In this document: positions 3,034 to 62,010 of the stretch, one piece after another
Position numbering within the stretch: position 1 is the stretch's first letter
How the letters are laid out: the number at the start of each line of letters is the position of its first letter
Assembly: GCA_030612885.1 (NCBI GenBank)
Contig: JAUWMZ010000003.1
Coordinates: forward strand, 69,578 to 133,577
Direction of reading: 5' to 3'
Length of the DNA: 64,000 bases
Source: Candidatus Nealsonbacteria bacterium
Lineage (GTDB): Bacteria; Patescibacteriota; Minisyncoccia; Minisyncoccales; JAGMDC01
Translations under genes and position numbers: made by a program
The notes under the pieces: generated by a model
What the model was told of the DNA's origin: nothing
Seen by the model: only the letters and a program-made list of their open reading frames with translations
Database searches by the model: none

Positions 3034-3152
3034 CGAAAAGTGGCTTCGCCACCCACGAAAAGGCCCGTGGCCCTCGTGGTTTTACGGGCTCGTGGCAAGC
3101 CGCTTTGAAGTGAGTCCCGAGATGAGCGAAGCGAATTTTTCGGGACTAATCT
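3034..3152. repeat. Cluster of GC-rich mini-hairpins immediately 3' of tRNA-Gln
   Basis: Contains GCCACgaaaaGTGGC, GTGGCttcGCCAC, CCACGaaaaggccCGTGG and GTCCCGA(gatgaGCGAAGCgaatttt)TCGGGAC at 3114-3146. The region is sharply more G+C-rich than its flanks and ends exactly where homology to the NUDIX gene begins. Confidence 0.75.
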
Positions 3153-3355
3153 ACATTGGAGAAACTTATAAATTTAAAGACAATAAAGTAAACAAAACCT
3201 GGATTATTCATCCTGTTTTAGCTGAACTAAAAGAATTACCTGATATAAGGCTAGATTGGGAACATACAGAATATAAATGGATTAAGCCGAAAGAGTTAAA
3301 GAAATTTGATATAGTTACTAATCTTGAAAAAAGTTACGAGAAGGCAATATTATAA
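3153..3355 (+). pseudogene. 3' fragment of a NUDIX hydrolase gene (paralogue of 25465..25965)
   Basis: Encodes ...IGETYKFKDNKVNKTWIIHPVLAELKELPDIRLDWEHTEYKWIKPKELKKFDIVTNLEKSYEKAIL. The full gene has ...IGETYKFIDSQINKTWIIYPVLVGLNRLPEIKLDWEHTEYKWIKPEQLKEFDIVTNLEKSFKKAAL. The two share several perfect 24-32 nt DNA blocks. The Nudix box is missing, and the N-terminus of ORF 3092..3355 is read out of the GC-rich hairpin cluster. Confidence 0.85.
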
Positions 3356-18613: not shown

Positions 18614-19339
18614 ATGGAAAACAAAAAGAATTTATTAAAGAATTTGTTAGGGTTGTTTATTGGATTTTTGGTTGTTTTATTTTATCTGTTTGGAGTAGAT
18701 TTTTATCAGGACCAGTCATATACTTTGGAGACAGAAGAGGTTGAAGTCCAGGTAGAAAGAGTAATTGACGGAGACACAATCCAAGTTAGGGAACTTCAAA
18801 GTGATGAGGTTTTTAATGTTCGCTATTTGGGAATTGATACTCCAGAGCTTGAGGGTCAGGATTATGAATCTTGCTTTGCGTCACAGGCGACAGAGAGAAA
18901 TGAGGACCTGGTTTTAGATAAAAAAGTGATTTTGGAATTTGATATTGATAAATATGATAGATTTGGCAGAACCCTGGCTTATGTTTATACTTTAGATGAA
19001 TTTGGCGAAAAGCAAACCTTTGTTAATCTTGAACTTTTGCAAGAAGGTTATGCCAGATTTTATCTTGATAAACAAAATACTCTTTATCAGGATGAATTTG
19101 TTCAAGCAGTTCTCACAGCTCAGGAAGATTTTTTAGGGATTTGGGGTTCTTGCGGGGAAGCAAGTTTTGACGTAAAATGTATGATTAAGGGTAATATAGA
19201 TCGTCTGGGTCAAAAATATTATCATCTTCCTGGAGATAAATATTATTCTTCTACCAAAATTAATCCCCTTAAAGAGGACCACTGGCTCTGTACCATTGAA
19301 GAGGCAGAGGCCAAAAACTTCCATAGAGCCCTTCAATGA
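18614..19339 (+). CDS. Membrane-anchored thermonuclease (SNase/micrococcal nuclease family)
   Basis: N-terminal TM helix. VIDGDTIQV, YLGIDTPE and DRFGRTLAYVY are SNase motifs. The C-terminal CMIKGNIDRLGQKYYHLPGDKYYSSTKI...WLCTIEEAEAKNF is the conserved Cys-containing tail. Confidence 0.9.
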   Translation: MENKKNLLKNLLGLFIGFLVVLFYLFGVDFYQDQSYTLETEEVEVQVERVIDGDTIQVRELQSDEVFNVRYLGIDTPELEGQDYESCFASQATERNEDLVLDKKVILEFDIDKYDRFGRTLAYVYTLDEFGEKQTFVNLELLQEGYARFYLDKQNTLYQDEFVQAVLTAQEDFLGIWGSCGEASFDVKCMIKGNIDRLGQKYYHLPGDKYYSSTKINPLKEDHWLCTIEEAEAKNFHRALQ

Positions 19340-19500
19340 GGAAAATAGAAAGAAAATAGTGTTAAATATATGTCTTTTCTATTTAAAAGAATAAAAATTA
19401 AGTGGTGGCTGGCAATTTTGATTTACCTTCTTTTTACTAGTTTAATTATTTTATTAGAAGTTTTGATAATAAAATAATTGAGAATTTTAACTAAAAAAAT

Positions 19501-19992
19501 ATGAACAAAAATATTATAATAATCATAGTAATTATTGCTGTTGCAGGCGCTGGCTTTTGGTTTTATAACTGGCAGAGTCAGGACGAAAATCAGAGCCAAA
19601 ACCAGGATCAGAATCAGAACCAAGAGACAGAAGAAGAGCAAAACGAAACAAAAGAGGAAGGGGAAAAAGGACAACTCAAAATAGAGATTTTAGAACAAGG
19701 AACCGGCGAATTAGCTGATGTTGGCAATACAGTAGCTGTTCATTATACAGGCACATTTGAGGATGGAACAAAGTTTGATTCAAGTTTGGACAGAGGACAG
19801 CCGTTTATTTTTAAATTGGGACAAGGACAAGTGATAAAGGGCTGGGAGCAGGGGATTTTAGGAATGAAAGTCGGCGAAAATAGAAAATTAACAATTGGTC
19901 CGGATTTAGCTTACGGAGAGATGGGAATACCAGGAGCGATATTGCCAAATGCAGTTTTAATCTTTGAAGTAGAGCTTTTAGAAATTCAATAA
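19501..19992 (+). CDS. FKBP-type peptidyl-prolyl cis-trans isomerase, membrane anchored
   Basis: TM helix, Q/N/D/E-rich linker, then [16 protein letters not shown]...[18 protein letters not shown]...LIFEVELL. Confidence 0.9.
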
Positions 19993-25346: not shown

Positions 25347-25464
25347 CAGCTGTTGCAGACAGATTGAGTGTTTTCGTTCAAATTTTGAAAGCCGAAAAGT
25401 ATTTATACCAAGTAGGCGTTTTTTTTATTTCCAAAACAACGGTTTTTTGGTAGAATAAGATAAT

Positions 25465-25965
25465 ATGTATAGCAAAGAAGAAAAAATTTTAAACACAATC
25501 AGAGAATTTGCTGAAAAGTTGCCAAAGTTTCAAGACGGAAGAATTGATTATTCAAATTCTGATATTGCTCCAGTGATAACTGTTTTTATAAAGTATGAAT
25601 ATAAAATTCTTTTATTGAAGCGAAGCAATAAAGTCAGAACTTATCAAAGAAAGTGGAATGCTATTGCTGGTTATTTAGACGAATTAAAACCAATTCGTGA
25701 AAAAGCGATAGAAGAAATTCAAGAAGAAACGCAAATCAACAGAGATAATATTTTATCCTTTCACATTGGAGAAACTTATAAATTTATAGATTCTCAAATA
25801 AATAAAACTTGGATTATCTATCCTGTTTTAGTTGGATTAAATAGGTTGCCAGAGATAAAATTAGATTGGGAACATACAGAATATAAATGGATTAAACCAG
25901 AACAATTAAAAGAATTTGATATAGTTACTAATCTTGAAAAAAGTTTTAAAAAAGCAGCACTATAA
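25465..25965 (+). CDS. NUDIX hydrolase
   Basis: AGYLDELKPIREKAIEEIQEETQI is a Nudix-box-like segment. Extended -10 TGGTAGAAT lies at 25449-25456. Confidence 0.7.
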   Translation: MYSKEEKILNTIREFAEKLPKFQDGRIDYSNSDIAPVITVFIKYEYKILLLKRSNKVRTYQRKWNAIAGYLDELKPIREKAIEEIQEETQINRDNILSFHIGETYKFIDSQINKTWIIYPVLVGLNRLPEIKLDWEHTEYKWIKPEQLKEFDIVTNLEKSFKKAAL

Positions 25966-31331: not shown

Positions 31332-32000
31332 TCATTTAACAATTTTCCACTCAATTTTTGATTCTTTATCAGCAAACTCCAGCCATTGGCCGTCTTTGTC
31401 AATAACATACCATTTTCTTTTTGACGCTGACCAGACCATTGGGTCGTCTCTGTAAAACGGTTTTTTAACAACCTCTTTTGGCTTTAACTTATCTAATTCC
31501 AGCCATTTCTTAAATACTGTCTCAATGGCATAATCCAGATTTCTGGATTTTGCCCATTCAGCGACCGTAGAAATGGCTTTTTTCGCTTTTTCCATTGAAC
31601 CGGCTAAGTCCAGAAGCTGTTTTGCCGGCTTGGTAAACCTGGAATAAACAATCTTTCTTTTTTTAGCATTTCGTTTGAGCTCGCCTAAGCTTAGCCCTTT
31701 GGTCTGAAAGTAATAAGTAACAATCTGGCGGACAGCAGTTTCTTGTTTTAATTTCTCATAGTATTTAATCTTGCCTTTTTTTAGATATTCTTCAATTTTA
31801 TCGGCAATACTTTTTCCAACGCCTTGGATTTCTTTCAAGCCATTGACGCCTTTTTCCTTGTAAATATCAGCTATATCCTCTTTTAAATTTTCCAGAGTTA
31901 AAGCGGCTCTATGATAAGCACTCGGTTTAAAAGACACCCCTTTTATTTTCAATAATTCCTCTATTTCGTATAATATTTTAGCGATTTTTTGATTTGTCAT
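31332..32000 (-). CDS. Helix-hairpin-helix protein resembling the N-terminal region of family X DNA polymerases, with an unknown C-terminal domain
   Basis: IAKILYEIEELLKIKGVSFKPSAYHRAALTLENL...LKEIQGVGKSIADKIEEYLKKGK matches the Pol X 8-kDa/HhH pattern. No polymerase catalytic domain is present. Confidence 0.55.
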   Translation of the reverse strand: MTNQKIAKILYEIEELLKIKGVSFKPSAYHRAALTLENLKEDIADIYKEKGVNGLKEIQGVGKSIADKIEEYLKKGKIKYYEKLKQETAVRQIVTYYFQTKGLSLGELKRNAKKRKIVYSRFTKPAKQLLDLAGSMEKAKKAISTVAEWAKSRNLDYAIETVFKKWLELDKLKPKEVVKKPFYRDDPMVWSASKRKWYVIDKDGQWLEFADKESKIEWKIVK

Positions 32001-32009
32001 TTCAAAATT

Positions 32010-32040
32010 GGGCGAAGTCCGTCCTCGCCCAATTTGGGCG
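32010..32040. repeat. REP-like GC hairpin, copy A (GGGCGAAG-TCCGT-CCTCGCCC plus AATTTGGGCG tail)
   Basis: The stem extends to AAATTGGGCGAAG / CCTCGCCCAATTT. Same family as 44588, 60086, 60672, 60909 and 61993. Confidence 0.85.
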
Positions 32041-32065
32041 AGGTTGGGTCTTTTTTGGTTTTTGG

Positions 32066-32647
32066 CTATCGCTCAAATTTTTCAACTGTAAATTTGTAAA
32101 TTATTATTTTTTCTGTATCAGGGTTAATATTTCCTTTCTGGCAGGCAATGGAGATTTGCTTTTCAACAGTATCCACTCCTTCTAAATCAGGCAAAAGCAG
32201 TCCTGATTTAAAATGAGTTCTTAGCGCAGGTTCAAAAATAACGTCAGAGCCGGGAGAAAAGGACTGGGATTTTACAAGGATGCCGTATTTTTTCGGATCT
32301 AATTCTTTTGTGCTCTTTATTTGTTCTGGTTTATTTAAAACATACACAGTATAAGAAAGCTCGGGAAGTTCCTGTTTCTGAATAGGGGAGAAGCGATAAT
32401 CCTCAGTTGCCGCGGCAATGGCATTATGAATAATTTCCTGGGCAATATTTTCTTTTGTCGGCAAGTAAGTACCAATACAGCCACGAAGTTTTCCTTGATT
32501 TTCAATAGTAACAAAAACACCTGCTTTACGAAAAAACTCTTTAGTTAGATTTTCAGGGGCGGAAATCATCCTTCCTTCTTTAAGATATACTTCCACCGCC
32601 TTTTTAGCAAGTGAGCTATATTGGTTCATAAAAAGTGTATTAAACAC
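32066..32647 (-). CDS. AMMECR1 domain protein (AmmeMemoRadiSam system protein A-like)
   Basis: LRGCIGTYLPTKENIAQEIIHNAIAAATEDYRFSPI is the canonical AMMECR1 core. Confidence 0.88.
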   Translation of the reverse strand: MFNTLFMNQYSSLAKKAVEVYLKEGRMISAPENLTKEFFRKAGVFVTIENQGKLRGCIGTYLPTKENIAQEIIHNAIAAATEDYRFSPIQKQELPELSYTVYVLNKPEQIKSTKELDPKKYGILVKSQSFSPGSDVIFEPALRTHFKSGLLLPDLEGVDTVEKQISIACQKGNINPDTEKIIIYKFTVEKFER

Positions 32648-36240: not shown

Positions 36241-36804
36241 ATGATGAAAAGGATTTTTATTGCTGTAAATCTGCCTGAAAGAATAAAAGAAGAACTTCTA
36301 CTTTATCATGAAAAATGGCCAGATTTACCTATTAAATGGGTAAAGCCGGATAATCTTCATATTACTCTAATTTTTCTTGGCAATATCAACGACCAGGAGA
36401 TTTTAGAGATTGATAGGGCTGTTAAAGAAATTACTGCGCGATATCAATCCTTTTCAATAAATTTGAATAGAATTTGCTACGCTCCTCCTAAAAAAATACC
36501 ACCGCGAATGGTCTGGGCAGAAGGACAAAAAGTAGAAAAATTAGCTAATCTAAAACAGGATTTAGAAAAATCTTTAATTAATTCTGGGATTAACTTCTCT
36601 TTGGAAAACAGGGATTTTAGGCCGCATATTACTTTAGGTAGAATTAAAGCTTGGGAATGGAAAAAAATAGAACCAGAAGAAAGACCGGAAATAAATGAAG
36701 ATATTTCCTTATCTTTTAATGTAAATTCAATTGAAGTAATGGAAAGCGAATTAAAACGTGCAGGTCCTAAATATACTGTATTAGAATCAATATCATTAAA
36801 ATGA
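36241..36804 (+). CDS. thpR: RNA 2',3'-cyclic phosphodiesterase (2H family, ThpR/LigT)
   Basis: Two HxT motifs: LHITLIFLG and PHITLGRI. The start at 36241 (MMKRIFIAVNLPE) is preferred over 36220, which lies inside the promoter. Confidence 0.88.
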   Translation: MMKRIFIAVNLPERIKEELLLYHEKWPDLPIKWVKPDNLHITLIFLGNINDQEILEIDRAVKEITARYQSFSINLNRICYAPPKKIPPRMVWAEGQKVEKLANLKQDLEKSLINSGINFSLENRDFRPHITLGRIKAWEWKKIEPEERPEINEDISLSFNVNSIEVMESELKRAGPKYTVLESISLK

Positions 36805-38162
36805 AAATTCACTTTATCGGAATTGGCGGGATTGGCGTTTCTGCTTTAGCTCAATATTATTTAGCAAAAGGCGAGCAAGTTTCTGGCTCTGATTTAGCAT
36901 CTTCTGAAATCACAGAATTACTTAAAAGAAAGGGTGCTAAAATTATTATAGACCAAAACGCAAAAAATATAACCAAAAATATAGATTTAGTAATTTATAG
37001 TCCGGCAGTCAAAGAAGATAATCCGGAATTAAAAGAAGCGAAAAATTTAGGTATTAAATGTTTGTCTTATCCAGAGGTATTAGGAGAATTGACAAAAAAA
37101 TACTTTACTATTGCCATAACCGGCACTCATGGTAAAAGCACAACCACAGCAATGGTTGCTCTGCTCTTAATAAAAGCCGGTTTTGACCCGACAGTAATTG
37201 TCGGAACAAAATTAAAAGAATTCAATAATTCAAACTTCAGAATGGGCAAAAGCAAATACTTAATTATTGAGGCCTGCGAGCATGAAGAATCATTTTTAAA
37301 TTATTGGCCTAAGGCTGCTGTTATTACTAATATTGAGAAAGACCATCTTGATTATTATAAAAATTTGAATAATATTTTGAAAGCATTTAAAAAGTTTATT
37401 TCGCATTTGCCAAAAAATGGAGTGTTGATAACTAACAAAGATGACAAAAATATTGCTCAAATTTTAATATCCAAGGCCAAAAAATACACAGGTCAGACCT
37501 GTGTATTTTCGTTAAATCAAAAGAGAGAGGCAGAGAAATTAAGAAAGATTCTAAGAATTCCTGGAGAGCATAATATTTATAATGCTTTGGCAGCATTAAC
37601 AGTAGCCAGGGTCTTGAAAATTCCAGATAAGATTAGTTTTAAGGCATTATCAGAATACAAAGGCGTTTGGCGTCGTTTTGAAATAAAAAAGTCAATAGTT
37701 AATGGTCAACAGTTAATAGTAATTTCGGATTATGCTCATCATCCAACAGAAGTAAAAGCAACATTAAAAGCTAGTAGAGAAAAATTTGCGAGGCAAAAAA
37801 TCTGGTGTGTTTTTCAGCCGCATCAATATCAAAGAACATATTATTTATTTAATGATTTCGTCAAAGTTTTTAAAGAGGCATTAGACGAGAACTGGATTGA
37901 TAAGTTAATTATTACTGATATTTATGATGTGGCTGGCAGGGAAGATAAAGAGATTAAAAAGAAAGTAAGTTCTAAAAAGCTAATTAAAGAAATAAAAGAA
38001 AACTTGAAAAATTTTGCTATGGCAAGAAATGTCAAACATATTTCATCTATTAAGCAAACAGCAAATTATTTAAAGAAAAATCTGGAGGACAAAGAAATTC
38101 TAATTATAATGGGAGCAGGGGATATCTATAAATTAAGTTTTCCACAGGTAGCTATTGTTTGA
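36801..38162 (+). CDS. murC: UDP-N-acetylmuramate--L-alanine ligase
   Basis: HFIGIGGIGVSALA, ITGTHGKSTTT and the Mur ligase middle and C-terminal domains. A 4-nt overlap with thpR. Confidence 0.92.
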   Translation: MKIHFIGIGGIGVSALAQYYLAKGEQVSGSDLASSEITELLKRKGAKIIIDQNAKNITKNIDLVIYSPAVKEDNPELKEAKNLGIKCLSYPEVLGELTKKYFTIAITGTHGKSTTTAMVALLLIKAGFDPTVIVGTKLKEFNNSNFRMGKSKYLIIEACEHEESFLNYWPKAAVITNIEKDHLDYYKNLNNILKAFKKFISHLPKNGVLITNKDDKNIAQILISKAKKYTGQTCVFSLNQKREAEKLRKILRIPGEHNIYNALAALTVARVLKIPDKISFKALSEYKGVWRRFEIKKSIVNGQQLIVISDYAHHPTEVKATLKASREKFARQKIWCVFQPHQYQRTYYLFNDFVKVFKEALDENWIDKLIITDIYDVAGREDKEIKKKVSSKKLIKEIKENLKNFAMARNVKHISSIKQTANYLKKNLEDKEILIIMGAGDIYKLSFPQVAIV

Positions 38163-40273: not shown

Positions 40274-40320
40274 TATAGCAAATCAGAGATTTGGTATATC
40301 AGACTAAAGTCTGTTATAAT
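40274..40320 (+). promoter_or_regulatory. Stereotyped promoter module, copy 1 (TATAGCAAATCAGAGATTTGGTATATCAGACTAAAGTCTGTTATAAT)
   Basis: TTGGTA-N18-TATAAT. Near-identical copies lie at 44337-44383 and, for the 3' 32 nt, at 47761-47792. Confidence 0.65.
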
Positions 40321-40353
40321 AAAATAAAGTTAAAAATTTAGAAAATTTATTAA

Positions 40354-43849: not shown

Positions 43850-43871
43850 TCATCCTATCAAAGGGACGTAG

Positions 43872-43898
43872 ATGTGTAGATGTCAGACATCTACACAT
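43872..43898. repeat. Palindrome ATGTGTAGATG-tcaga-CATCTACACAT
   Basis: 11-bp perfect stem immediately downstream of mraY. Confidence 0.6.
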
Positions 43899-43979
43899 AA
43901 CTATTGATTAATTCTCCAAGATTTGCTAAAAAGAAAACAACGATGAGAAAATCTCATCAACTTAAAAAAAGAATAGGGG

Positions 43980-44237
43980 GTGATTATTGTGAAATATGAA
44001 GTACTTTTAGAAGAACAAGGGAGCAAGAAAACATTACAAATTGAAGCTAAAGACGATATCGATTTATTTAAAGTTTTGGTAGACCAAACAAATCCATTTT
44101 TTCCACCAGTGATAAAAGCTTGGTGTGTTATTGACAAGAAGAAAAGAGAAATTCCACCAGAATCAATTGAATGGTTACATCAAGTATTCGATAATGCCCA
44201 TTACGAGAGTCAATATGCAGCTATAGGAAGTATTTAA
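43980..44237 (+). CDS. Hypothetical protein (85 aa) inserted in the mur/dcw cluster
   Basis: GTG start preceded by GGGGG. A hairpin plus T-run follows at 44283-44316. No motif recognised. Confidence 0.35.
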   Translation: MIIVKYEVLLEEQGSKKTLQIEAKDDIDLFKVLVDQTNPFFPPVIKAWCVIDKKKREIPPESIEWLHQVFDNAHYESQYAAIGSI

Positions 44238-44282
44238 TAATCGGGTAGCATTTGCGCGAGCAAAAAATCAAATAGAAATCAA

Positions 44283-44316
44283 GCTGGGTTGGTTCAATCC
44301 AGCCATTTTTTTTTTG
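44283..44316 (+). terminator. Terminator-like hairpin plus long T-run
   Basis: GCTGG-gttggttcaat-CCAGC followed by CATTTTTTTTTTG. Confidence 0.55.
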
Positions 44317-44336
44317 ATTTCAGGCGAATTTTAGAA

Positions 44337-44383
44337 TATAGCAAATCAGAGATTTGATATATTAAACTAAAGTTTGTTATAAT
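44337..44383 (+). promoter_or_regulatory. Stereotyped promoter module, copy 2
   Basis: TATAGCAAATCAGAGATTTGATATATTAAACTAAAGTTTGTTATAAT. The TATAAT ends 8 nt before the ATG at 44392. Confidence 0.65.
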
Positions 44384-44391
44384 AAAAAAAC

Positions 44392-46104
44392 ATGAAAAAA
44401 GTTGATAGTTTACCCCGCACCTTTTCTGGACAGAAGCCGAAGGCTTCAAAAATGCAAAAAAGTGCAGAAAAGGTGCGGGGTTTAAGAAAAAAATATCCGA
44501 AATTTGTTTACGAAAGTTATTTTTACGAAATCTTTAAAAATGATTTAAAGATTTCTTTTGATTTTAAGATATACACAAAAGGAGATAGGGCGAGGACGGA
44601 CTTCGCCCAATCTCACATTATTCATTTTCAACCAAAAATTGTAATAAAAAACATTGATAAAAAACGATTAGCAGAAATAGGCCCGCCTGCATCGGCTACG
44701 CCTGCTCGCAGCGATGCAGCAACTTCGGGCAAGCCGAAGGCGTTGCGGGCAGGGGACAGGGTATTAGATAATCTTGTTTTTCATTTGGGTTTAATGGAAA
44801 TTCCCAGTTATTGGAAAACGACTTGTTCGCCAGAAATTGAAATCAAAGCCGGATATTTAGATAAACAGCAAATAAAATGGTGGAAAGATTTTATCCTTAA
44901 TGGAATGGGTCAATTCTTTTATGAAAATAAAATTGATTTTACTAAATCAAATTTTCTAAAAATTACTTCAGTAGCGGAGAACAGTTCTCCGCTAAAATTG
45001 GCGGAGAACAGTTCTCCGCAATCTTTAACAAAGAATTTTTTAATCCCAATGGGCGAGGGCAAGGATTCAATTGTTACTTTAGAGTTGCTCAAAAAATTTG
45101 ACAAGATTAGCGTAGGCAAAAAAAGTCAAATAGATTGCTTTGTTGTTAATCCCACGAAAGAGCATTTTAAAATTTTAAAGATTGCTAAAATTAAAAATCC
45201 AATCATTGCCCAAAGAAAGATAGATCCTGTTTTATTAGAATTAAACCGAAAAGGATCCTACCCTGCCTGCCCTGAGCGAAGTCGAAGGGAGCTCGCCGAA
45301 GGGTTTTTGAATGGACACACGCCAATTACAGCTGTAATTTCTAATTTAGCAGTTTTTTGTGCGGTTTTATTTGGGTTTAAGAGTGTAGTTATGTCCTGTG
45401 AAAGAAGCTCAAATGAAGGCAATGTGAGGTATTTAAAAAAAACAATAAACCATCAGTGGTCAAAAAGTTTTGAATTTGAAAACAAATACAGAAATTATGT
45501 TAAAAAATATTTAGTTAAAGACATAAACCCCGCACCTTTTATGCACAGAAGGTGCGTGGTAAACTATTTTAGTTTTCTAAGGCCTTTGTATGAAATCCAG
45601 ATTGCTAAAATTTTTTCCAAATTTTCAGAATATTTTCCTGTATTTTTAAGCTGTAATGAAGCAAGAAAAACAAATTCCTGGACTAAAAAACCAACAGGCA
45701 AATGGTGCGGGAGATGCTCAAAATGCCTGTTTATTTGGACAATTTTATATCCTTTTGTAAAAGAAAAAGAATTAATAAAAATCTTTGGCAAAAATCTTTT
45801 TAAAGATAAAAAACTAATTCCAATAATGAAAGAACTAATAGGAAATGATAAATATAAGCCATTTGAATGCGTTGGCACTAAAAAAGAAACTCTGATTGCT
45901 TTTTACTTGTCATACAAAATTTACATAGGTGACACCTATGTAAATTTACCGCTTTTATTGAGGTATTTTGAAAAAAAAGTTTTGCCAAAATACTCAAAAT
46001 TAAAATTAGAGCAGGACTCAAAAAAGATATTAAGCTCATGGAATAAGCAAAATAACTTACCAAAAGAATTTGACAAAGCTTTAAGAAAGTTATATTTTAA
46101 ATAA
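44392..46104 (+). CDS. Uncharacterised dcw-cluster protein with a PP-loop-like GEGKDS motif and C-terminal CGRCSKC (possible MurL-type epimerase), carrying six in-frame GC-rich palindromic insertions
   Basis: Continuous 570-aa frame located between mraY and murD. The MurL assignment rests only on position next to murD and vague recall of the family. Insertions are listed as separate repeat features. Confidence 0.6.
   Translation: MKKVDSLPRTFSGQKPKASKMQKSAEKVRGLRKKYPKFVYESYFYEIFKNDLKISFDFKIYTKGDRARTDFAQSHIIHFQPKIVIKNIDKKRLAEIGPPASATPARSDAATSGKPKALRAGDRVLDNLVFHLGLMEIPSYWKTTCSPEIEIKAGYLDKQQIKWWKDFILNGMGQFFYENKIDFTKSNFLKITSVAENSSPLKLAENSSPQSLTKNFLIPMGEGKDSIVTLELLKKFDKISVGKKSQIDCFVVNPTKEHFKILKIAKIKNPIIAQRKIDPVLLELNRKGSYPACPERSRRELAEGFLNGHTPITAVISNLAVFCAVLFGFKSVVMSCERSSNEGNVRYLKKTINHQWSKSFEFENKYRNYVKKYLVKDINPAPFMHRRCVVNYFSFLRPLYEIQIAKIFSKFSEYFPVFLSCNEARKTNSWTKKPTGKWCGRCSKCLFIWTILYPFVKEKELIKIFGKNLFKDKKLIPIMKELIGNDKYKPFECVGTKKETLIAFYLSYKIYIGDTYVNLPLLLRYFEKKVLPKYSKLKLEQDSKKILSSWNKQNNLPKEFDKALRKLYFK
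44413..44480. repeat. PE-2 family palindromic element, copy 2, in frame inside the CDS
   Basis: CCCCGCACCTTTTCTG ... CAGAAAAGGTGCGGGG (16-bp perfect arms). It encodes LPRTFSGQKPKASKMQKSAEKVRGL. Confidence 0.85.
44588..44608. repeat. REP-like GC hairpin, copy B, in frame inside the CDS
   Basis: GGGCGAGG-ACGGA-CTTCGCCC is 21 nt (7 codons) and encodes (D)RARTDFAQ. Confidence 0.85.
44681..44750. repeat. 70-nt GC-rich two-hairpin element closed by an outer stem, in frame inside the CDS
   Basis: GCCCGC [CTGCATCG..17 nt..CGATGCAG] caa [CTTCGGgcaagCCGAAG] gcgtt GCGGGC. It encodes PPASATPARSDAATSGKPKALRAG. Confidence 0.8.
44974..45019. repeat. Tandem pair of the 19-nt palindrome GCGGAGAACAGTTCTCCGC (27-nt period), in frame inside the CDS
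   Basis: Copies lie at 44974-44992 and 45001-45019 and encode AENSSPLKL-AENSSPQSL. Confidence 0.85.
45253..45303. repeat. GC-rich insertion with CCCT(GAGCGAAGTCGA)AGGG hairpin and CGAAGGG direct repeat, in frame inside the CDS
   Basis: Encodes GSYPACPERSRRELAEG. The loop is related to the GAGCGAAGCGA loops at 3124-3134 and 8648-8658. Confidence 0.75.
45528..45559. repeat. PE-2 family short hairpin, copy 3, in frame inside the CDS
   Basis: CCCCGCACCTT-ttatgcacag-AAGGTGCGTGG encodes NPAPFMHRRCVV. Confidence 0.8.
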
Positions 46105-46352: not shown

Positions 46353-46400
46353 ATAGTTCCTCTTTTTTTTGACCTTTGGGTGATTTTGGGGTATGATAAA

Positions 46401-46469
46401 TCCAGCACCTTTTTGATAGGATATTAAACCCCACCAAGGAAAGGTAGATTATTCTAAAAAGGTGCTGGA
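46401..46469. repeat. PE-2 family palindromic element, copy 4 (variant arms TCCAGCACCTTTTT / AAAAAGGTGCTGGA)
   Basis: It lies directly upstream of murD. The listed GTG start at 46462 falls inside its right arm. Confidence 0.8.
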
Positions 46470-46476
46470 TAAAAAA

Positions 46477-47766
46477 ATGAAGTTAGAAGAATTAAAAAAC
46501 AAAAAAATACTTATTTTAGGTTTAGGGAAAGAGGGAATGGATAACTTCAAATTTTTGAGAAGGCTATTTCCGAATAAAGTTTTGGGATTGGCTGACAGAA
46601 AAGAATTTTCAAAACTAATAAAAAAAGATAAGAAAATTAGATTACATTTGGGAAAAAATTACCTCAAAGCCATAAAAAAATACGATGTAATAATAAAATC
46701 TCCTGGCATTCCTATTCTTTTGCCAGAGGTTGAAAGGGCTTTAAAACAAGGAAAGATAACTTCGCAGACAAAAATATTTTTTGAAAATTGTCCTGGAACA
46801 ATTATTGGTATCACTGGCACAAAAGGGAAAAGCACTACTGCTGCCTTAATTTACAAAATACTAAAAGACGCTAAATTAAAAACTCATTTAATTGGAAATA
46901 TTGGAAAACCAGTTTTATCTTATTTGGGCAACCCATTCGACAAACTCAGGGCGAGAGCAAAAGAAAATGATATTTTTGTCTATGAATTATCCTGCCATCA
47001 ATTATACAATCTTAAAAAACCTGCCGGCAGGCAGGCAGGAGTCCCTTATATTGCTGTTCTCTTAAATATCTATCCTGAACATCTTGATTATTACAAAAGT
47101 TTTAAAGAATATATAAAAGCAAAAGCAAATATCACTCGCTGGCAAACCAAAAATGATTATTTAATTTTTAATTCCCAGGATAAAATTGTCAGAGAAATTG
47201 CTAAAAACACAAAGGCAAAAAAAATTCCGATTAAAGGAAAATTTAATCTCTTAAATGTATCTGCTGCCAAAGAAGTAGGAAAAATATTCAAGATTTCTTC
47301 TAAAGAAATTGCCAAGTCAATTAAAAGCTTTAAACCTTTGCCGCACCGATTAGAGTTTGTTGGTATCTATAAAGAAATCAAATTTTACAATGATTCTTTG
47401 TCTACTATTCCAGAAACCACTATTGCTGCCTTAGACGCTTTAGGGAAAGATGTTCAGACATTAATTTTGGGCGGCTATGATAGGGGATTGGATTTTAAAA
47501 AACTGGGCAAAAGAATAGCGAGAAGTAAAGTAAAAACATTGATTTTATTTCCAGAAACCGGTAAAAAAATTTGGATTTCTGTTACTTCTAAAAAACGATT
47601 TAAAGCTTTTTTTGTGAATAATATGAAAGAAGCAATAAAATTTGCCTATCAGCACACTGAAAAAGGAAAAATTTGTTTATTATCGCCGGCTTCACCAAGT
47701 TTTGGTATTTTTAAAGATTATAAGGAAAGAGGAAATTTATTTAAAAAGTACATTTCAGGAATTTGA
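46477..47766 (+). CDS. murD: UDP-N-acetylmuramoyl-L-alanine--D-glutamate ligase (MurD family)
   Basis: ATG at 46477 ([20 protein letters not shown]). [10 protein letters not shown] and Mur ligase domains. Two short GC-rich in-frame patches lie at 46926-46957 and 47010-47028. Confidence 0.88.
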
Positions 47767-47792
47767 TATATTAGACTAAAATTTGCTATAAT
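47761..47792 (+). promoter_or_regulatory. Stereotyped promoter module, copy 3 (overlaps the murD stop)
   Basis: ATTTGATATATTAGACTAAAATTTGCTATAAT. The TATAAT ends 7 nt before the ftsW ATG at 47800. Confidence 0.6.
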
Positions 47793-47799
47793 AACAATA

Positions 47800-51918: not shown

Positions 51919-52050
51919 CTAACAGAGTTTGATATAGCCCATTGTTGCTAAAACTATAACAATGATTGCAATGGCTATACTTATCATTATACTTACTATA
52001 CTTCCTCTTATACTTCCTTTTCTTCCGTTTCTATCTTCTTCTGTTTCCAT
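51919..52050 (-). CDS. Small membrane protein (43 aa; below the ORF-track cutoff)
   Basis: METEEDRNGRKGSIRGSIVSIMISIAIAIIVIVLATMGYIKLC*. RBS AGGAGA upstream. Directly upstream of 51648..51908 on the same strand. Confidence 0.4.
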   Translation of the reverse strand: METEEDRNGRKGSIRGSIVSIMISIAIAIIVIVLATMGYIKLC

Positions 52051-52072
52051 TTTTTTTACATTCATCTCCTAA

Positions 52073-52591
52073 ATGAACTACTTAAGATTATACAAAACTA
52101 TAATGATATTGTCAAGTCTTGTAGTGATAAGCGGCTTGATTTTGCCAAGTTTTTGTTTTGCCCAGACAGGAGTTGAAGTTCCGAGTACTTTTGGAGAAGC
52201 AAAAGATTTTATAATAAGATTGGTTAAACCCTTGCCTAATATAATGAAGGATATCTGGCAAAACGAAGTTTTACCTTTTTGGCGGCAAATGGCAGAAAAA
52301 GTATCTAATTGGTGGAAAACATCGGTTTTGCCATGGCTAAAGAGTATTTTTTCCACCCTTAAATCCTGGTTTAATGAGGCAGTAGACTGGTTTTCAGGTA
52401 TTTGGTATGAAACTATTAAACCCTGGATTAGCAATTTATTGGATAAAATAAAAGGTCTCTTGGGTCAAGAAATTACAGAAAGAAAACCAGTTATTGAACA
52501 AGAATTTGAAAAAGAAAAACAAGAAATGAAACAAGAAATCCCTGAAGTTAGCAAAGGATTATGGCAAAAACTTAAAGAGCTTTTTAAGTAG
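52073..52591 (+). CDS. Secreted hypothetical protein, Trp-rich helical repeats
   Basis: Signal peptide ...LILPSFCFAQTG, then a repeated W-containing helical pattern (WxxxVLPWLKS, WFNEAVDWF, WYETIKPWI). Confidence 0.5.
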   Translation: MNYLRLYKTIMILSSLVVISGLILPSFCFAQTGVEVPSTFGEAKDFIIRLVKPLPNIMKDIWQNEVLPFWRQMAEKVSNWWKTSVLPWLKSIFSTLKSWFNEAVDWFSGIWYETIKPWISNLLDKIKGLLGQEITERKPVIEQEFEKEKQEMKQEIPEVSKGLWQKLKELFK

Positions 52592-52705
52592 CTAATAAGA
52601 CATAAATATCCACAGGGGGAGGATTGACACAGCTATTTGGCTGTTATATTATTAATATAGGAAAGTTCGCATAATTATACTTAAGAGTTTATTAATATAA
52701 CAAAC

Positions 52706-53662
52706 ATGGAGAAAAGCTCAATACCAATAATTCAATATTTACCAGATTTCTTGGATTGGCTTGATATAGAAAAAGGATTATCATCTAAATCTCAAGAAAA
52801 TTATACAAGATTTCTAAAAAAATTTTGGGATTGGCTTAAAATAAATAAATTAGAAAATATAAAACCTTATGAACTTACTCCGGACCATATTTGGAAATAT
52901 CGTGTCTTTCTTTCTAGACAATATATTTCAAAAAGAAAAAAAACATTAAAAAAATCTACCCAGAATTATTATTTAATAGCTCTTAGATCTCTTTTAAACT
53001 ATTTTGCCGAGCGTGATATTCTGTCTTTGCCGGCAGAAAAAATAAAATTAGCAAAAAATAAAGAGGAAACACAAGTCCGCTTTCTTACATTAGAACAGTT
53101 AGAAAAGTTATTCTCCATACCTAATATATCTAAAGATCAAGGTTTACGTGATAGAGCTATTTTAGAAGTGCTTTTTTCTACTGGAATGAGAATAGCAGAA
53201 TTAGTCGCTCTTGATAGAAATCAGATTAAAATAAAAACTGGCATGAAAGAATTAGAACTTGGAATTGTTGGCAAAGGAGAAAGGGCTCGAACAGTTTATT
53301 TCTCAGAAAGAACATTGTTCTGGTTAGATAAATATCTTAAAAATCGTAATGATAAAGCAGATGCTTTGTTTATTAATTATCGTAGAAAAAAAGGGACGTC
53401 TTCACGATTGACCGCTCGTTCAATAGAAAAAAAAATAAAGAAGCACGCCCTACTTGCTGGTCTACCAATAACAACTACGCCACATGTAATGCGACACAGT
53501 TTTGCCACAGATTTGCTTAACCAAGGAGTCGATTTAAGAACAATCCAAGAATTTTTAGGACATAAGAGTATTAGCGCTACTCAAATATACGCTCACGTTA
53601 CTTCAAAAAAACTTCGTGAAATTCATCGCCAATTTCACAGTGGTAAAAGACTAAAAGAATAA
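52706..53662 (+). CDS. Tyrosine recombinase XerC/XerD family
   Basis: RDRAILEVLFSTGMRIAEL, HVMRHSFATDLL, LGHKSISATQIYAHV (R-H-R-Y catalytic set). Confidence 0.9.
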   Translation: MEKSSIPIIQYLPDFLDWLDIEKGLSSKSQENYTRFLKKFWDWLKINKLENIKPYELTPDHIWKYRVFLSRQYISKRKKTLKKSTQNYYLIALRSLLNYFAERDILSLPAEKIKLAKNKEETQVRFLTLEQLEKLFSIPNISKDQGLRDRAILEVLFSTGMRIAELVALDRNQIKIKTGMKELELGIVGKGERARTVYFSERTLFWLDKYLKNRNDKADALFINYRRKKGTSSRLTARSIEKKIKKHALLAGLPITTTPHVMRHSFATDLLNQGVDLRTIQEFLGHKSISATQIYAHVTSKKLREIHRQFHSGKRLKE

Positions 53663-53745
53663 AAAAAACAAGGGCTAAATCCCCTGTTTTTTTATTTTAA
53701 ACCCGTCACAAAATAGAACGATCGTACTGATTTGTAGTGAAACAT

Positions 53746-54417: not shown

Positions 54418-54432
54418 AATCTGACTATTTTT

Positions 54433-55556: not shown

Positions 55557-55561
55557 TCATA

Positions 55562-55624
55562 CTAAACATATTAACATACTAACATACTAACAAAAGATAA
55601 AATCAAAAATGTTAATATGTTTAG
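55562..55624. promoter_or_regulatory. 16-bp perfect inverted repeat in the rpmA leader
   Basis: CTAAACATATTAACAT (55562-55577) and ATGTTAATATGTTTAG (55609-55624). The right arm abuts or overlaps the AGGTG Shine-Dalgarno of rpmA. Confidence 0.55.
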
Positions 55625-59221: not shown

Positions 59222-59506
59222 TTATTCAAATTTGAACTTTTTCCGTATAGCTAATATCACAAACCCATATTTATCTATTTCTTTCTTTGTATGAAATTTA
59301 TTCATCTTTTTTGTATTGAATTTGTACAACACCTCACATTTTGCTTCTTTGCCAGTAAGTTTTTTTGTTCCTTGTTTCTGCTCTTTCAATACAAGAATAT
59401 CACCAGGTTTGCATTTAAAATCCGCTAATCGAACCTCAAAACGCTTTTTGCCTTCTGTCACTGCCTTGAAATATTCCTGTTGAACTTTCTTTTTAATTAT
59501 CGCCAT
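59222..59506 (-). CDS. ASCH/DUF3850-like small protein
   Basis: YFKAVTEGKKRFEVRLADFKCKPGDILVLKE fits the DUF3850 (ASCH-fold) pattern. Confidence 0.6.
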   Translation of the reverse strand: MAIIKKKVQQEYFKAVTEGKKRFEVRLADFKCKPGDILVLKEQKQGTKKLTGKEAKCEVLYKFNTKKMNKFHTKKEIDKYGFVILAIRKKFKFE

Positions 59507-60074
59507 ATTTTTCCAATTCTTTTTTTAGCCAAACAATTGCTTTTTTAACATAATATTCCTTGTCCTGCTCAACTTTTTTGAGAATTTTCTTAATATTTTT
59601 TTTGAGGTTTTTATCCTTCTTAAAGTTTATCAACAAAACCAACCCGAACCGTCTCTGCCAAAAATTTTTAGATAAAACTAATTTTTTAGATAATTCAAAA
59701 ATTTCTTTTTGTTTAATTTTAGTGATTTTTCTTATTCCTTGGGTAGCTAAAGTATCACAAACTGCCCAGTCAGAAATATCCTTGCTAAATTTTTTAATTA
59801 ACTTTAGTGTTTTTTCTGCATCTTTTTTGCAAATTCTGCCTAAAATTTTTGTTGCTAATAATCTTTCTTCAAAAACTCCACTTTTCCATAACTTTTCAAC
59901 CAAATCAAAATCCGGCTCTTTAATCCTTTTAGCAATATCATTCAACGTTGGAACCTTCACTCCATAAATTCTTTGAGATGAAGGCACAAATTTTTGATAA
60001 TTTTCTTTTACTTTTTCCTTTATTTCCCTTTTGAATATTTTCCGAATTTCCAAAATTTCCATAAGCAAGTACAT
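59493..60074 (-). CDS. DNA alkylation repair protein (AlkD/AlkC-like HEAT-repeat family)
   Basis: VPTLNDIAKRI...EERLLATKILG...ISDWAVCDTLA...FWQRRFGLVLL. The start is trimmed to 60074 or 60062 because the listed N-terminus (to 60131) is read through REP copy C. Confidence 0.75.
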   Translation of the reverse strand: MYLLMEILEIRKIFKREIKEKVKENYQKFVPSSQRIYGVKVPTLNDIAKRIKEPDFDLVEKLWKSGVFEERLLATKILGRICKKDAEKTLKLIKKFSKDISDWAVCDTLATQGIRKITKIKQKEIFELSKKLVLSKNFWQRRFGLVLLINFKKDKNLKKNIKKILKKVEQDKEYYVKKAIVWLKKELEKYGDN

Positions 60075-60085
60075 TGGATGAAGCT

Positions 60086-60116
60086 GGGCGAAGACGGACT
60101 TCGCCCAAATTTGGGC
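60086..60116. repeat. REP-like GC hairpin, copy C (GGGCGAAG-ACGGA-CTTCGCCC plus AAATTTGGGC)
   Basis: 3' flank of the RAYT-like gene. Its loop is in the opposite orientation to copy E on the 5' flank. Confidence 0.9.
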
Positions 60117-60155
60117 AAAATCCGCCCTCACTTTTTTATCTATTTTTTTATTCTT

Positions 60156-60899
60156 TTACTCTAAAACAAAATTGGAAAATTTTTTTATTTCTCCTTTGTA
60201 TTTTACCCAATTTTCAATAAAATCTTTACATCCCTGTTCTCCTCCCATTGCTTTTAGCATGGAGTTCCTTTCGGTCACTGAAGGAAAATTCTTTTTTCCG
60301 AGATAATCAGAATAACTAGACCATTTATAATTTTTTAAAAACTCAATTACTTTTTCCATATTCTTTATACCTATTTCTTTCCATTTTGGCTCTATAAGAG
60401 ATATAGGATTAGTATGGATATAGACAAATACAATTTTTAATTGTCTATCGGTTTTGATATGAATTGTCTTAAATCGTCCTTGAAAAAGGTAGCCCTTCCG
60501 ATTATATTTTTTATTGAAATAATTAGCATATCCTGTACCGAACTTTCTCATAAATTTAGTGATTCCTTCATCTTTAGTTTGTTTAATTAATAAATGGATA
60601 TGATTCGGCATAAAACAAAAAGTAAAGATTTCTACTAATAAATCTCTTTTGTCAGGAATATTAACTGAAATAGGCGAAGACGGACTTCGCCCGGCTTGTT
60701 CTCTGGATAATTTTTTTATGGTTTGAATCTCACGACGTCTTTTACCAATATTTACTGAATTAATATTATTAAATTCATAAAGAGAAAAAATGCCTCTATA
60801 GTAATCGTTAATGTCTTTGAAAATTAAGGAATCGCCAACTCCTCTGAGCACAATATGATAGATTTCGTTATTTATTAATTCTTGTTGTCTAATGGGCAT
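60156..60899 (-). mobile_element. IS200/IS605-family Y1 HUH transposase homologue of the REP-associated (RAYT-like) type
   Basis: HUH motif FMPNHIHLLIK, GYLFQGRFK, catalytic-Tyr motif VYIHTNPIS, KWSSYSDYLG. There is no TnpB partner, and it is flanked by inverted REP-like hairpins. Confidence 0.8.
60672..60692. repeat. REP-like GC hairpin, copy D, in frame inside the RAYT-like gene
   Basis: AGGCGAAG-ACGGA-CTTCGCCC encodes (E)QAGRSPSSP on the minus strand. Confidence 0.85.
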
Positions 60900-60908
60900 A
60901 ATTTAGCC

Positions 60909-60952
60909 GGGCGAAGTCCGTCTTCGCCTGATTTTATCTTCGCCTGATTTTA
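60909..60952. repeat. REP-like GC hairpin, copy E, followed by a 16-bp perfect tandem duplication of its 3' half
   Basis: GGGCGAAG-TCCGT-CTTCGCC, then TCTTCGCCTGATTTTA twice (60921-60936 and 60937-60952). Confidence 0.9.
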
Positions 60953-61374
60953 CTTAAATCCCCGTAAAGAACAATGGGACTCATAGCCTCTATTTCTTCC
61001 TTATAATTTATGCCAGGAATGGGATTTAATAAAAATATCTTTTTACCTAAAACATAAGCAAATCCCATTTCTAAAAAAGTATTGCCTCCAATATAATTTT
61101 TGATGTCATTTTTATCAAAATTCAAAACTAAAACTGCATCACTATTCTTTATTCTTTCTATATGTTCATCAATCAATGATTTCTTGAGTTTCAATAAATC
61201 TTCTGTGAGATCGTTTTTTCTCATTGCGTGAAAATCCTTCATAGATACAGTATCACCCTTCACTCCAATTTCTGGTGACCAGATAAAAACAAGATGGTTT
61301 TTTCTTTCTAATTCTTTCTTGATTTCATAACATTCTTTTGTAAAAAATGCTGATGAACAAATTGTTATTTTCAT
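60934..61374 (-). CDS. Nucleoside 2-deoxyribosyltransferase-like protein
   Basis: Start at 61374 (MKITICSSAFF...). Contains SDAVLVLNFDKNDIKNYIGGNTFLEMGFAYVLGKKIFLL. The last codons (KIRRR*) are read from the duplicated REP half-site. Confidence 0.5.
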   Translation of the reverse strand: MKITICSSAFFTKECYEIKKELERKNHLVFIWSPEIGVKGDTVSMKDFHAMRKNDLTEDLLKLKKSLIDEHIERIKNSDAVLVLNFDKNDIKNYIGGNTFLEMGFAYVLGKKIFLLNPIPGINYKEEIEAMSPIVLYGDLSKIRRR

Positions 61375-61384
61375 AATTAAAGAT

Positions 61385-61972
61385 TTAAACTTCCTTTTTA
61401 TAGCCGATTTCAGGAAACATTTCAACTATTGTTTCCAAGGGAATACCTCCTAAAAGATTGTAATAACTTCCTTCTATTCTTTTAACAAATGACGAACTGG
61501 AATGCCTTAAAGGGTCATAACCCAAAGCAAAGGTATTGAAACGAGGATCTTCGTCAAGATATTTCTCAATTTCTTTATCTGAAAGTTTTCTCATAAATAC
61601 CTCTGTTTTGACAACTTTTGAAACTACTTTATCCAAAGATGTATTAATCATATAAATTCCTGTATAAAATTGATGGTTATTTCCTGAAAGAGATTGTAGT
61701 CGCTGAAATTCCTCTTCTTTTGATTTTGGCTTTTCCAGAATTTGATTATTAAAATACCCGACTGAATCCATCCCAATTACAATAGCATCAGAATAATTTT
61801 TGGCAACTGCTTCAGCTTTTAATTTTGATAGTGTTTTAACTAATTCTTCGGGATTATTTCTCTCTACTTGAGATTCATTAACATTACTCCCTTCTATTTC
61901 AAAATCAATTCCTAAACATCCAAATGCTTCTTTGCGATAAGGAGAGGTTGTAGCTAAAATTATTTTAGTCAT
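61385..61972 (-). CDS. maf: Maf-like nucleoside triphosphate pyrophosphatase
   Basis: IILATTSPYRKEAF..., VIGMDSV, GAFALGYDPL-type motifs. Confidence 0.8.
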   Translation of the reverse strand: MTKIILATTSPYRKEAFGCLGIDFEIEGSNVNESQVERNNPEELVKTLSKLKAEAVAKNYSDAIVIGMDSVGYFNNQILEKPKSKEEEFQRLQSLSGNNHQFYTGIYMINTSLDKVVSKVVKTEVFMRKLSDKEIEKYLDEDPRFNTFALGYDPLRHSSSSFVKRIEGSYYNLLGGIPLETIVEMFPEIGYKKEV

Positions 61973-61992: not shown

Positions 61993-62010
61993 GGGCGAAG
62001 TCCGTCTTCG
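61993..62010. repeat. REP-like GC hairpin, copy F (3' truncated)
   Basis: GGGCGAAG-TCCGT-CTTCG then diverges. It is intergenic. Confidence 0.75.

Follow-up and report, generated by a model that had tools for sequence, protein, structure and literature searches.

A GC-rich DNA hairpin is repeated within a 64,000-nt stretch of contig JAUWMZ010000003.1 from a Candidatus Nealsonbacteria bacterium (the whole stretch is called the window below), and four of its six copies lie within 1.2 kb of a gene for a Y1 (HUH) tyrosine transposase, 60156..60899(-). The hairpins are probably (at a rough probability of 0.7) the cognate DNA palindromes of this adjacent enzyme, which resembles the tyrosine transposases associated with repetitive extragenic palindromes (REPs), known as RAYTs. 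Gene and hairpins would thus represent a REPtron-like unit in a Parcubacteria genome of the Candidate Phyla Radiation (CPR), and mobilization of the hairpins by the enzyme is inferred from sequence. A preliminary description of the window had treated the hairpin as an anonymous dispersed repeat. The repeat itself was confirmed, but its context, the adjacent Y1 transposase, had been overlooked.

Copies were identified with the pattern GGGCGAAG-N5-CTTCGCCC, allowing up to two mismatches, and 100 dinucleotide-preserving shuffles of the window served as null model. Five full copies were located at positions 32010, 44588, 60086, 60672 and 60909, each with no or one mismatch, whereas the shuffles gave no match. 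A sixth copy at 61993 is truncated at its 3' end (GGGCGAAGTCCGTCTTCGtat). The background to these GC-rich hairpins is AT-rich, with a GC content of 29-36% in the window. The 5-nt loop serves as an orientation marker, reading TCCGT at 32010, 60909 and 61993 and ACGGA at 44588, 60086 and 60672, so that both orientations are present. The preliminary description had listed the same six copies and loop orientations and their dispersal over 30 kb in intergenic and coding DNA, all of which was borne out, far above chance. It had also proposed a genome-wide scan with a pattern or covariance model and a comparison of the genomic copy number with a null model. When such a model was trained exclusively on hairpins from other genomes, it recovered all five full copies (E = 1e-4 to 5e-3) and four additional hairpins of the same superfamily at 44971, 44998, 37483 and 43873. 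Six copies compare with none expected; this count applies to about 74 kb of the genome (the window and approximately 10 kb of neighboring contig) and describes a low-copy repeat rather than a classic high-copy REP. No further copies occurred in the approximately 10 kb beyond the window edges that were reached by contig walking via edge proteins. Folded as single-stranded DNA, the full copies showed energies of -8.1 to -11.3 kcal/mol (z = -3.4 to -5.6, n = 5) and the truncated copy -4.3 kcal/mol (z = -2.3). Rfam at gathering thresholds and a tRNA scan revealed two tRNAs only in the window. A scan of a genome collection with GGCGARGACGGACTTCGCC gave 92 matching stretches. Almost all of the 80 that were listed are single chance matches in high-GC genomes, and among the matches listed an inverted doublet was found only in locus L013, in a Parcubacteria MurL-like gene. 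CRISPR repeats were considered and dropped, as an array is absent, and HIP1-like short words were likewise dropped as the identity of the repeat.

The flanks relate the copies to each other in pairs. The copies at 60672 and 60909 share AGGCGAAG...CCCGGCT, and those at 44588 and 61993 share ...CCCAATCTCAC as well as the flank AATCTCAC; the latter copy is positioned 1.1 kb upstream of the transposase gene. The tail ...CCCAA(A)TTTGGGC that had been noted after the copies at 32010 and 60086 is real. As comparison with the orthologous locus L094 shows, this tail begins a second, decayed and inverted copy, and both sites are therefore regarded as decayed doublets. At the former, AATTT separates the hairpin 32010-32030 from a partial second copy, of which the first half is present (32036-32043), and the extended stem spans 32005-32035. 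At the latter, 60113-60129 correspond to the decayed inverted partner of 60086-60106, with a 6-nt spacer between them. The stem at 32010 has the length of 13 positions that had been claimed for it, but its pairing is not perfect, as one A.C mismatch occurs (AAATTGGGCGAAG / CCTCGCCCAATTT). As reverse complements, the copies at 32010 and 44588 are identical in 21 of 21 nucleotides, including a G.T position, which points to a recent common origin of their sequences.

The transposase matched Pfam Y1_Tnp (IS200-like) with E=1.4e-10 and 41.8 bits, against a curated cut-off of 23. Its HuH motif is NHIH (residues 99-102) and the catalytic Tyr160 is located in YIHTNP; N99, H100, H102, Y160, H162 and N164 are invariant in 120 homologue sequences. 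The Y---NP arrangement is the signature of class 2 TnpA-Y1 proteins, which were defined by a HuH and a Y---NP motif (PMC6006769). A conserved C-terminal extension of approximately 80 aa contains WSSY, and Pfam detected no helix-turn-helix (HTH) domain in this tail. An AlphaFold model calculated on the 120 homologues reached a predicted template modeling score (pTM) of 0.71, with confidence values (pLDDT) of 80-90 in the core. Its top Foldseek match in the PDB was 4ER8_A, the E. coli TnpA-REP with a REP hairpin bound (E=6.4e-6, prob 1.00), and matches 2-24 include the IS608, ISDra2 and IS200 transposases; sequence searches of the PDB gave weak matches to ISDra2 only. The window contains one copy of the gene, which encodes an intact Y1 HUH enzyme.

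More than 2,200 relatives of this protein were found at E<=1e-3 in 90% clusters, most of them unnamed. Among the top 120, identities range over 59-85% and lengths over 228-286 aa, and the members with names belong to Candidatus Parcubacteria; a library of 50% clusters holds 179 representatives at E<=1e-30. The family alignment contains a single variable linker, which often looks like a translated GC palindrome (GR..SP, RGRVS, GGSPPSS). The surroundings of the gene were surveyed in 85 homologous loci. In a strict scan for GC-rich hairpins, 46/77 loci had one within 100 nt upstream, 43/85 had one at gene nt 150-260 and 54/80 had one in the first 100 nt downstream, at a background of 0.044 hairpins per 100 nt. 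A motif scan located the hairpin upstream in 45/73 loci, internally and in frame in 40/82, downstream in 53/77 and at all three positions in 20/68. Shuffled loci gave 2 motif matches in 626 kb, compared to hundreds in the real loci, and a covariance-model search added weaker hairpins in loci that the strict scans had missed. Internal copies always occupy codons 61-75, and the median gap to the gene is 19 nt upstream and 12 nt downstream. In the window, the peptide of the internal hairpin is located in a low-confidence loop of the model, between an extra helix and the strand preceding the HuH strand.

Within each locus, one sequence is common to all three hairpins. The outer stems vary from locus to locus, whereas the center is conserved, with a consensus of CGGAGG-yCyGw-CCTCCG and a core of GAGG-NCYGN-CCTC. 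The loop C and G (NCNGN) occur in approximately 80% of the family hairpins, and there is hardly any variation at positions +-5 (A:T) and +-6 (G:C). Covariation with pairing kept extends over positions +-7 to +-10, although the percentage of paired positions is inflated by the use of a hairpin finder to select the hairpins. A specific match of gene and hairpin is supported most strongly by locus L127, a metagenomic contig. It harbors two RAYT-like paralogues, 10001-10720 and 19215-19934, which are 9 kb apart and approximately 55% identical, and each is accompanied at all three positions by a hairpin of its own, GCGGAAG-yCCGT-CTTCCGC in one case and GGCAACG-TCCGA-CGTTGCC in the other. Locus L131 also contains a second, distant paralogue (30% identity) at 7782-8399.

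Comparison of related loci indicates how the hairpins change. The 85% identical ortholog in L094 shares the context of the window gene, consisting of a 146-aa open reading frame (ORF), the RAYT gene and a DNA-alkylation-repair gene. It has the same triad, with the same upstream hairpin likewise 9 nt ahead of the ATG. The internal hairpin, however, has been flipped in place, and the flanks on either side are identical (GRGRTSP vs GRSPSSP in the window). In L103 the downstream hairpin of its 85% relative is replaced by two copies with other stems, and inverted or tandem doublets occur in L013, L110, L123, L151, L155 and L174. The palindromy often continues for 13-20 bp into AT-rich flanks, and these flanks are not the same in the different copies of a locus. 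In many loci it goes far past the shared core, giving stems of up to 17-20 bp, for example in L165 (2535-2559, 2804-2828 and 3356-3380) and in the window (32005-32035 and 44582-44614). As a guess, fold-back or template-switch extension might produce such flank palindromy. An invertible segment 60672-60909 was considered and dropped, since the relative orientation of upstream and internal hairpin is not conserved across loci.

These observations suggest the following mechanism, which is modeled on related enzymes. The transposase, as a dimer, would bind the hairpin when it is exposed in single-stranded DNA, such as that of the replication fork, and recognition would depend on the conserved loop and inner stem. 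Cutting and rejoining may then occur at the hairpin, as with the TnpA of IS200/IS605 and with TnpA-REP. The three local copies could be kept identical by concerted evolution, along with flipping in place and doublet formation. Occasionally copies would be seeded or overwritten elsewhere, preferably nearby and in short spacers before start codons or in tolerant protein loops; in coding DNA, only in-frame copies would survive. The RAYT gene looks domesticated rather than mobile, judging from its single copy in the window, the conserved neighborhoods and the 60-70% identity across many lineages. LigA-RAYT-FtsW occurs in approximately 10 loci and type IV pilus clusters accompany the gene in approximately 9. 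The single copy and the context kept in L094 fit vertical inheritance, yet L127 and L131 harbor divergent paralogues.

Several points weigh against this interpretation. The score with the NCBIfam model REP_Tyr_transpos (NF047646) was E=1.1e-10 and 41.5 bits, below the cut-off of 80, which makes the protein a relative, not an equivalog, of the proteobacterial RAYTs. The GT[AG]G tetranucleotide at the hairpin foot is absent from the six window copies (0/6) and rare in the family (2/129 directly at the foot, 13/129 within 6 nt). The orientation of the flanking copies is inconsistent (23 inverted, as in the window, and 14 same), and the pattern is blurred because loops flip in place between orthologues. 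The repeat is low in copy number, with six copies in about 74 kb and four of these near the gene, and there is little dispersal in other loci: in 37 of them whose flanks measure 3 kb or more, the cognate hairpin hardly ever occurred at distances above 1.2 kb. The density of superfamily hairpins with other stems was 0.044 per kb in other loci, compared to 0.082 per kb for the window and 0.003 per kb for shuffled sequence. The covariation suffers from the selection of hairpins mentioned above, so that only the diversity of pair types is informative. The copy at 44588 may be an old site that was rewritten in place rather than a new insertion, and binding, cleavage and mobility are all inferred from sequence. 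A different account of the same unit, possible but unlikely, is that the hairpins do not copy themselves and spread like classic REPs. Instead, their positions would be ancient and stable, with three of them at the gene and the remainder within loops encoded by essential cell-wall genes or directly before start codons, and their sequences would be rewritten again and again by the domesticated enzyme. If so, enzyme-driven concerted evolution would consist of in-place inversion, replacement and palindrome extension, and each paralogue would be a self-addressed module of a gene plus three substrates, with the internal copy serving autoregulation or self-targeting. Such hairpins would then regularly give rise to in-frame insertions in the loops of CPR proteins.

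The positions of the copies also invite explanations that do not involve a REPtron-like unit. The gene could belong to an autonomous IS200-like insertion sequence, with the outer hairpins as left and right ends and the solitary copies as end remnants or footprints. The Pfam and fold assignments to Y1 transposases, the subterminal hairpins known in IS200/IS605, the same orientation of upstream and downstream hairpins in 14/37 related pairs and the two paralogues in some genomes agree with this. However, the window contains a single copy of the gene, paralogues on the same contig share only about 55% identity and differ in their hairpins instead of being near-identical, and the motif is the class 2 Y---NP and not the Y---Q of IS200 (PMC6006769, Table 1). 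Moreover, the protein has 247 aa with a conserved C-terminal extension compared to approximately 150 aa in IS200, the same hairpin is present on both sides, inverted in the window, and neighborhoods have been kept between genomes with a protein identity of about 60-85%. An insertion sequence is thus improbable. A role in RNA, as terminators, mRNA-stabilizing 3' hairpins or translation control in the 5' untranslated region, with an autoregulatory or incidental link to the transposase, is about equally improbable. It would fit the intergenic copies, all of which are located in very short spacers, with co-directional genes on both sides and a start codon 9-23 nt further on; mRNA decay and termination are known to be influenced by E. 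coli REPs, and some copies were flagged as terminator-like in a consensus scan. The terminator-like T-runs are antisense to the local genes, except in the RAYT-internal copy, which was flagged on the sense strand, and for this reason the terminator reading was rejected. In addition, stem mismatches show no sense-strand preference for G.U over A.C (14 vs 23, p=0.19), hairpin orientation relative to the gene is variable and one member of the triad is inside the coding sequence. A hairpin of its own for each paralogue and a conserved loop motif fit recognition by a protein better than a generic RNA structure.

Protein recognition could also take place at double-stranded operator sites, bound by a dimer, be it the transposase-like protein with its C-terminal domain or another regulator, with neither extrusion nor cleavage. 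The quasi-palindrome of 8+5+8 with its conserved inner core, the sites at the promoter-proximal end of the gene and the HTH-like C-terminal tails reported for a subclass with similar motifs (PMC6006769) are compatible with operators. Against this, the complementarity of the outer stem is kept while its sequence changes freely among proteins that are 60-70% identical, so that intrastrand pairing is the simpler explanation. The palindromy of often 13-20 bp into AT-rich flanks that are not shared by copies of one locus, the copies inside unrelated coding sequences and the Pfam result for the tail are also unfavorable to operators, and the invariance of HuH and Tyr in 120 sequences argues for retained nuclease chemistry. 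This explanation is rated slightly below the preceding two. GC-rich words are conspicuous in a genome of 32% GC, but a chance or compositional artefact is refuted by the absence of matches in 100 shuffles, by the contrast between 2 motif matches in 626 kb of shuffled loci and hundreds in the real ones, and by the recovery of the copies with an independent model trained on other genomes.

Table 1. Hairpins and associated features of the window (window numbering).
Feature	Position	Strand	Description
RAYT-like Y1 (HUH) tyrosine transposase gene	60156..60899	-	247 aa; Pfam Y1_Tnp
Upstream hairpin of triad	60909..60929		9 nt before RAYT ATG; subfamily AGGCGAAG..CCCGGCT
16-nt tandem duplication, TCTTCGCCTGATTTTA x2	60921..60952 (60921-60936 / 60937-60952)		Hairpin 3' half and flank
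Internal hairpin of triad	60672..60692		In frame, RAYT codons 70-76, peptide GRSPSSP
Downstream hairpin of triad	60086..60129 (hairpin 60086-60106)		49 nt past RAYT stop
Truncated copy	61993..62010		20 nt before Maf gene ATG; 10 nt past LPG-synthase-like stop
Copy in MurL-like coding sequence	44588..44608		In frame, codons 66-73, RARTDFAQ; extended palindrome 44582-44614
Intergenic copy	32010..32043 (hairpin 32010-32030)		9 nt before ATG of HHH_8 gene 31332..32000(-)
Second hairpin family, same superfamily, GCGGAGAACAGTTCTCCGC x2	44974..45019		In frame, MurL-like coding sequence (AENSSPLKLAENSSP)
Third hairpin type, AATACACAGG-TCAGA-CCTGTGTATT	37483..37507		In frame, Mur-ligase coding sequence 36801..38162
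Third hairpin type, TGTGTAGATG-TCAGA-CATCTACACA	43873..43897		Intergenic, start of 465-nt insert absent in L182

The upstream hairpin of the triad starts 4 nt past the stop of the upstream ORF, and the downstream doublet precedes the probable start of the DNA-alkylation-repair gene by 11-23 nt (Table 1). The preliminary description had regarded the ends of three ORFs as artefactually extended by reading through copies, and two of the three support such an annotation caveat. An N-terminal extension of 59493..60131 is plausible, as its Pfam domain begins at residue 30 and the L094 ortholog is 23 codons shorter, with a start after the hairpin. ORF 31994..32185(+) is most likely wholly spurious and not an extended gene, being mostly antisense to the well-supported AMMECR1 gene 32066..32647. 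In ORF 60934..61425 there is no read-through of a full copy; the five codons at its end (KIRRR*) derive from the 16-nt tandem duplicate, which recodes the C-terminus to ...SKIRRR* compared to ...SKIEES* in L094.

Both coding copies, at 44588 and 60672, had been placed in coding sequences, and they are translated in-frame parts of real genes. By sequence comparison such copies are insertions or segments in variable protein loops and not artefacts. The MurL-like protein 44392..46104 has 570 aa, compared to typically 450-515 aa in the listed relatives, and is thus approximately 85 aa longer than most. Its alignment shows at least six lineage-specific in-frame segments, including RARTDFAQ (44588) and the doublet 44974-45019. 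The region 36.1-52.7 kb of the window is syntenic with locus L182 (79% nucleotide identity over 15.2 kb), and the inserts in coding sequences relative to L182 are all multiples of three (21, 24, 36, 48 and 72 nt). The window exceeds L182 by 21 nt at the 44588 site, where L182 and many homologues already have a shorter hairpin, CGAGGACAGACCTCG ('EDRPR'). This indicates that the site is old whereas its sequence is lineage-specific, and weakens the notion of a recent insertion.

The two hairpins of the second family scored E=4.7e-5 and 8e-4 with the covariance model trained on other genomes, and the RAYT loci L111 and L173 have the same core (GCGGAGAACAGTTCTCCGC) as their cognate hairpin. Conversely, P0125 and P0128 (= L013) carry the window-type hairpin in the MurL-like loop in which the window has the second family, so that these loops are recurrent hosts. 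In L013 (JAGMAD010000001.1, related Parcubacteria) the inverted doublet of the window hairpin spans 3918-3975, in frame in the MurL-like gene and in the place of the GCGGAGAACAGTTCTCCGC doublet. The third hairpin type at 37483 is enclosed in a 33-nt stretch that is 100% conserved in L182, with diverged flanks.

Other insertions were observed in the same region. A palindromic family with the arms GCACCTTTT...AAAAGGTGC is present at 44408-44479 and 46399-46470 (72 nt each) and as a 36-nt short form at 45524-45559. One 72-nt copy and the short form are in frame in the MurL-like coding sequence, and the other 72-nt copy is intergenic. All three are absent in L182, and they resemble Rickettsia palindromic elements (RPEs) or miniature inverted-repeat transposable elements. 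GC-rich (54-76%) in-frame inserts relative to L182 were found in the MurL-like and MurD-like genes at 44679-44750, 45251-45298, 46929-46952 and 47019-47039 (72, 48, 24 and 21 nt); one codes for 'PACPERSRRELAE' and one corresponds to ACCTGCCGGCAGGCAGGCAGG. Between the MraY-like and MurL-like genes, where the spacer in L182 measures 35 nt, the window has an insert of 465 nt (43857-44321) with the hairpin 43873-43897 at its start and short, unsupported ORFs. A promoter-like module of approximately 43 nt, TCAGAGATTTGATATATTAAACTAAAGTTTGTTATAATAAAA, with a TGnTATAAT-type -10 element and a small hairpin, is located at 40283-40325, 44346-44388 and 47755-47797, in each case immediately ahead of the start codon of a cell-wall or aminoacyl-tRNA gene, and at each of the three sites all or part of it is missing in L182.

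Elsewhere in the window, an intergenic module TTATCGCAAAAATGGCGGTTTTTTGGTAGAATAAAATAAT at 7134-7173 and 25425-25464 (also at 24907 and 36203) is similar to a terminator hairpin fused to an extended -10 promoter. The GC-rich segment 3012-3107 is strongly structured (approximately -44 kcal/mol as RNA); it directly follows tRNA-Gln (2960-3033) and overlaps the start of ORF 3092..3355, of which 203 nt (3153-3355) are 81% identical to 25763-25965. The GC skew changes sign at approximately 52000-56000, where genes converge (+ up to 53662, - from 53746). This region could represent a replication terminus or a rearrangement breakpoint, at a distance of approximately 7 kb from the RAYT gene. The block at 30.7-36.2 kb is locally inverted and has negative skew.

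The REPtron-like unit would extend biology of the REP/RAYT type to the CPR, whose tiny, streamlined genomes are not expected to hold selfish or domesticated DNA. Among the papers listed in the literature searches, none mentioned REP/RAYT systems together with Parcubacteria, Patescibacteria or CPR. With regular triads, paralogue-specific hairpins and a conserved loop motif, the family offers a natural system for studying hairpin recognition by Y1 HUH enzymes, and its layout bears on the open question of why hosts keep RAYT genes as domesticated transposases. It would also account for in-frame insertions of GC-rich DNA and for displaced ORF ends in the gene calls of Parcubacteria, such as the peptides of 'GR..SP' type and the long MurL-like protein.

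Classic REPs typically number more than 100 per genome, and hundreds in Proteobacteria, and are mostly extragenic. The window unit shares with the REP/RAYT systems, such as E. coli yafM/TnpA-REP and the Pseudomonas REPINs, a Y1 HUH gene flanked by short GC-rich palindromes that are also found elsewhere in the genome, a hairpin family of its own for each gene, the Y---NP motif, the best fold match (4ER8) and inverted doublets (here in L013, L123, L151 and L174, and decayed in the window). It differs in the lack of a 5' GT[AG]G foot, the conserved part being loop and inner stem (GAGG-NCYGN-CCTC), and in its low copy number of few per 70 kb, usually as three local copies within +-10 kb. Further differences are the regular third copy in frame inside the gene, N-terminal to HuH, the longer protein (247 aa) with FQ instead of the WQ/WE motif, and the host, a CPR bacterium. 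REP/RAYT systems were described by Nunvar 2010 (PMC2817692) and Bertels & Rainey 2011 (PMC3116915). It has been reported that REPs flank tnpA-REP genes and that some are inserted in frame within them (PMC6006769), and REPs in coding regions have also been described (PMC3733652).

Among the TnpA-Y1 subclasses, subclass 2.4 (Quentin 2018, PMC6006769; Bertels group 4) likewise has a cognate REP in frame within the gene, in a peripheral loop, and NH[IFV]H as HuH motif. However, its REPs are long or 'double foot' (GT[AG]G...C[TC]AC), a feature absent here, and its proteins have WQ, YIxNNP and a median of 194 aa, compared to FQ, YIHTNP and 247 aa; the insert here is at codons 61-75, upstream of HuH at 99-102. 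When compared by eye with the published table, the motifs of the protein look most like those of subclass 2.1 / TIRYT (PMC6006769; Di Nocera 2013 PMC3733652), with NHxH, FQ, Y[IV]HxNP, approximately 238 aa and an SS tail. Subclass 2.1 was reported without REP-like hairpins, which are the rule here. TIRYT genes are flanked by GGGGWSAS inverted repeats, whereas no GGGGWSAS was found within 15 kb of the RAYT gene. With IS200/IS605 elements (IS608, ISDra2, IS200) the unit shares the Y1 HUH fold and probably also the recognition of subterminal DNA hairpins and the single-strand chemistry. These elements have Y---Q, proteins of approximately 150 aa, multiple near-identical copies and distinct left and right ends on one strand, none of which were seen here. 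RPEs are roughly 100-150 bp long. Together with the intragenic REPs (cited in PMC3733652), they are similar in that in-frame palindromes are tolerated in variable loops of functional proteins, but RPEs are CGTC-tagged and lack a dedicated transposase (PMC3733652), whereas the hairpins here have 21-35 nt and a cognate Y1 gene. The distinctive features of the present unit are the three-hairpin layout with an in-frame copy before HuH, loop-centered recognition instead of a GTAG foot and the low copy number. It does not represent a new principle, but a REPtron-like unit that is clean and widespread in an unexpected lineage.

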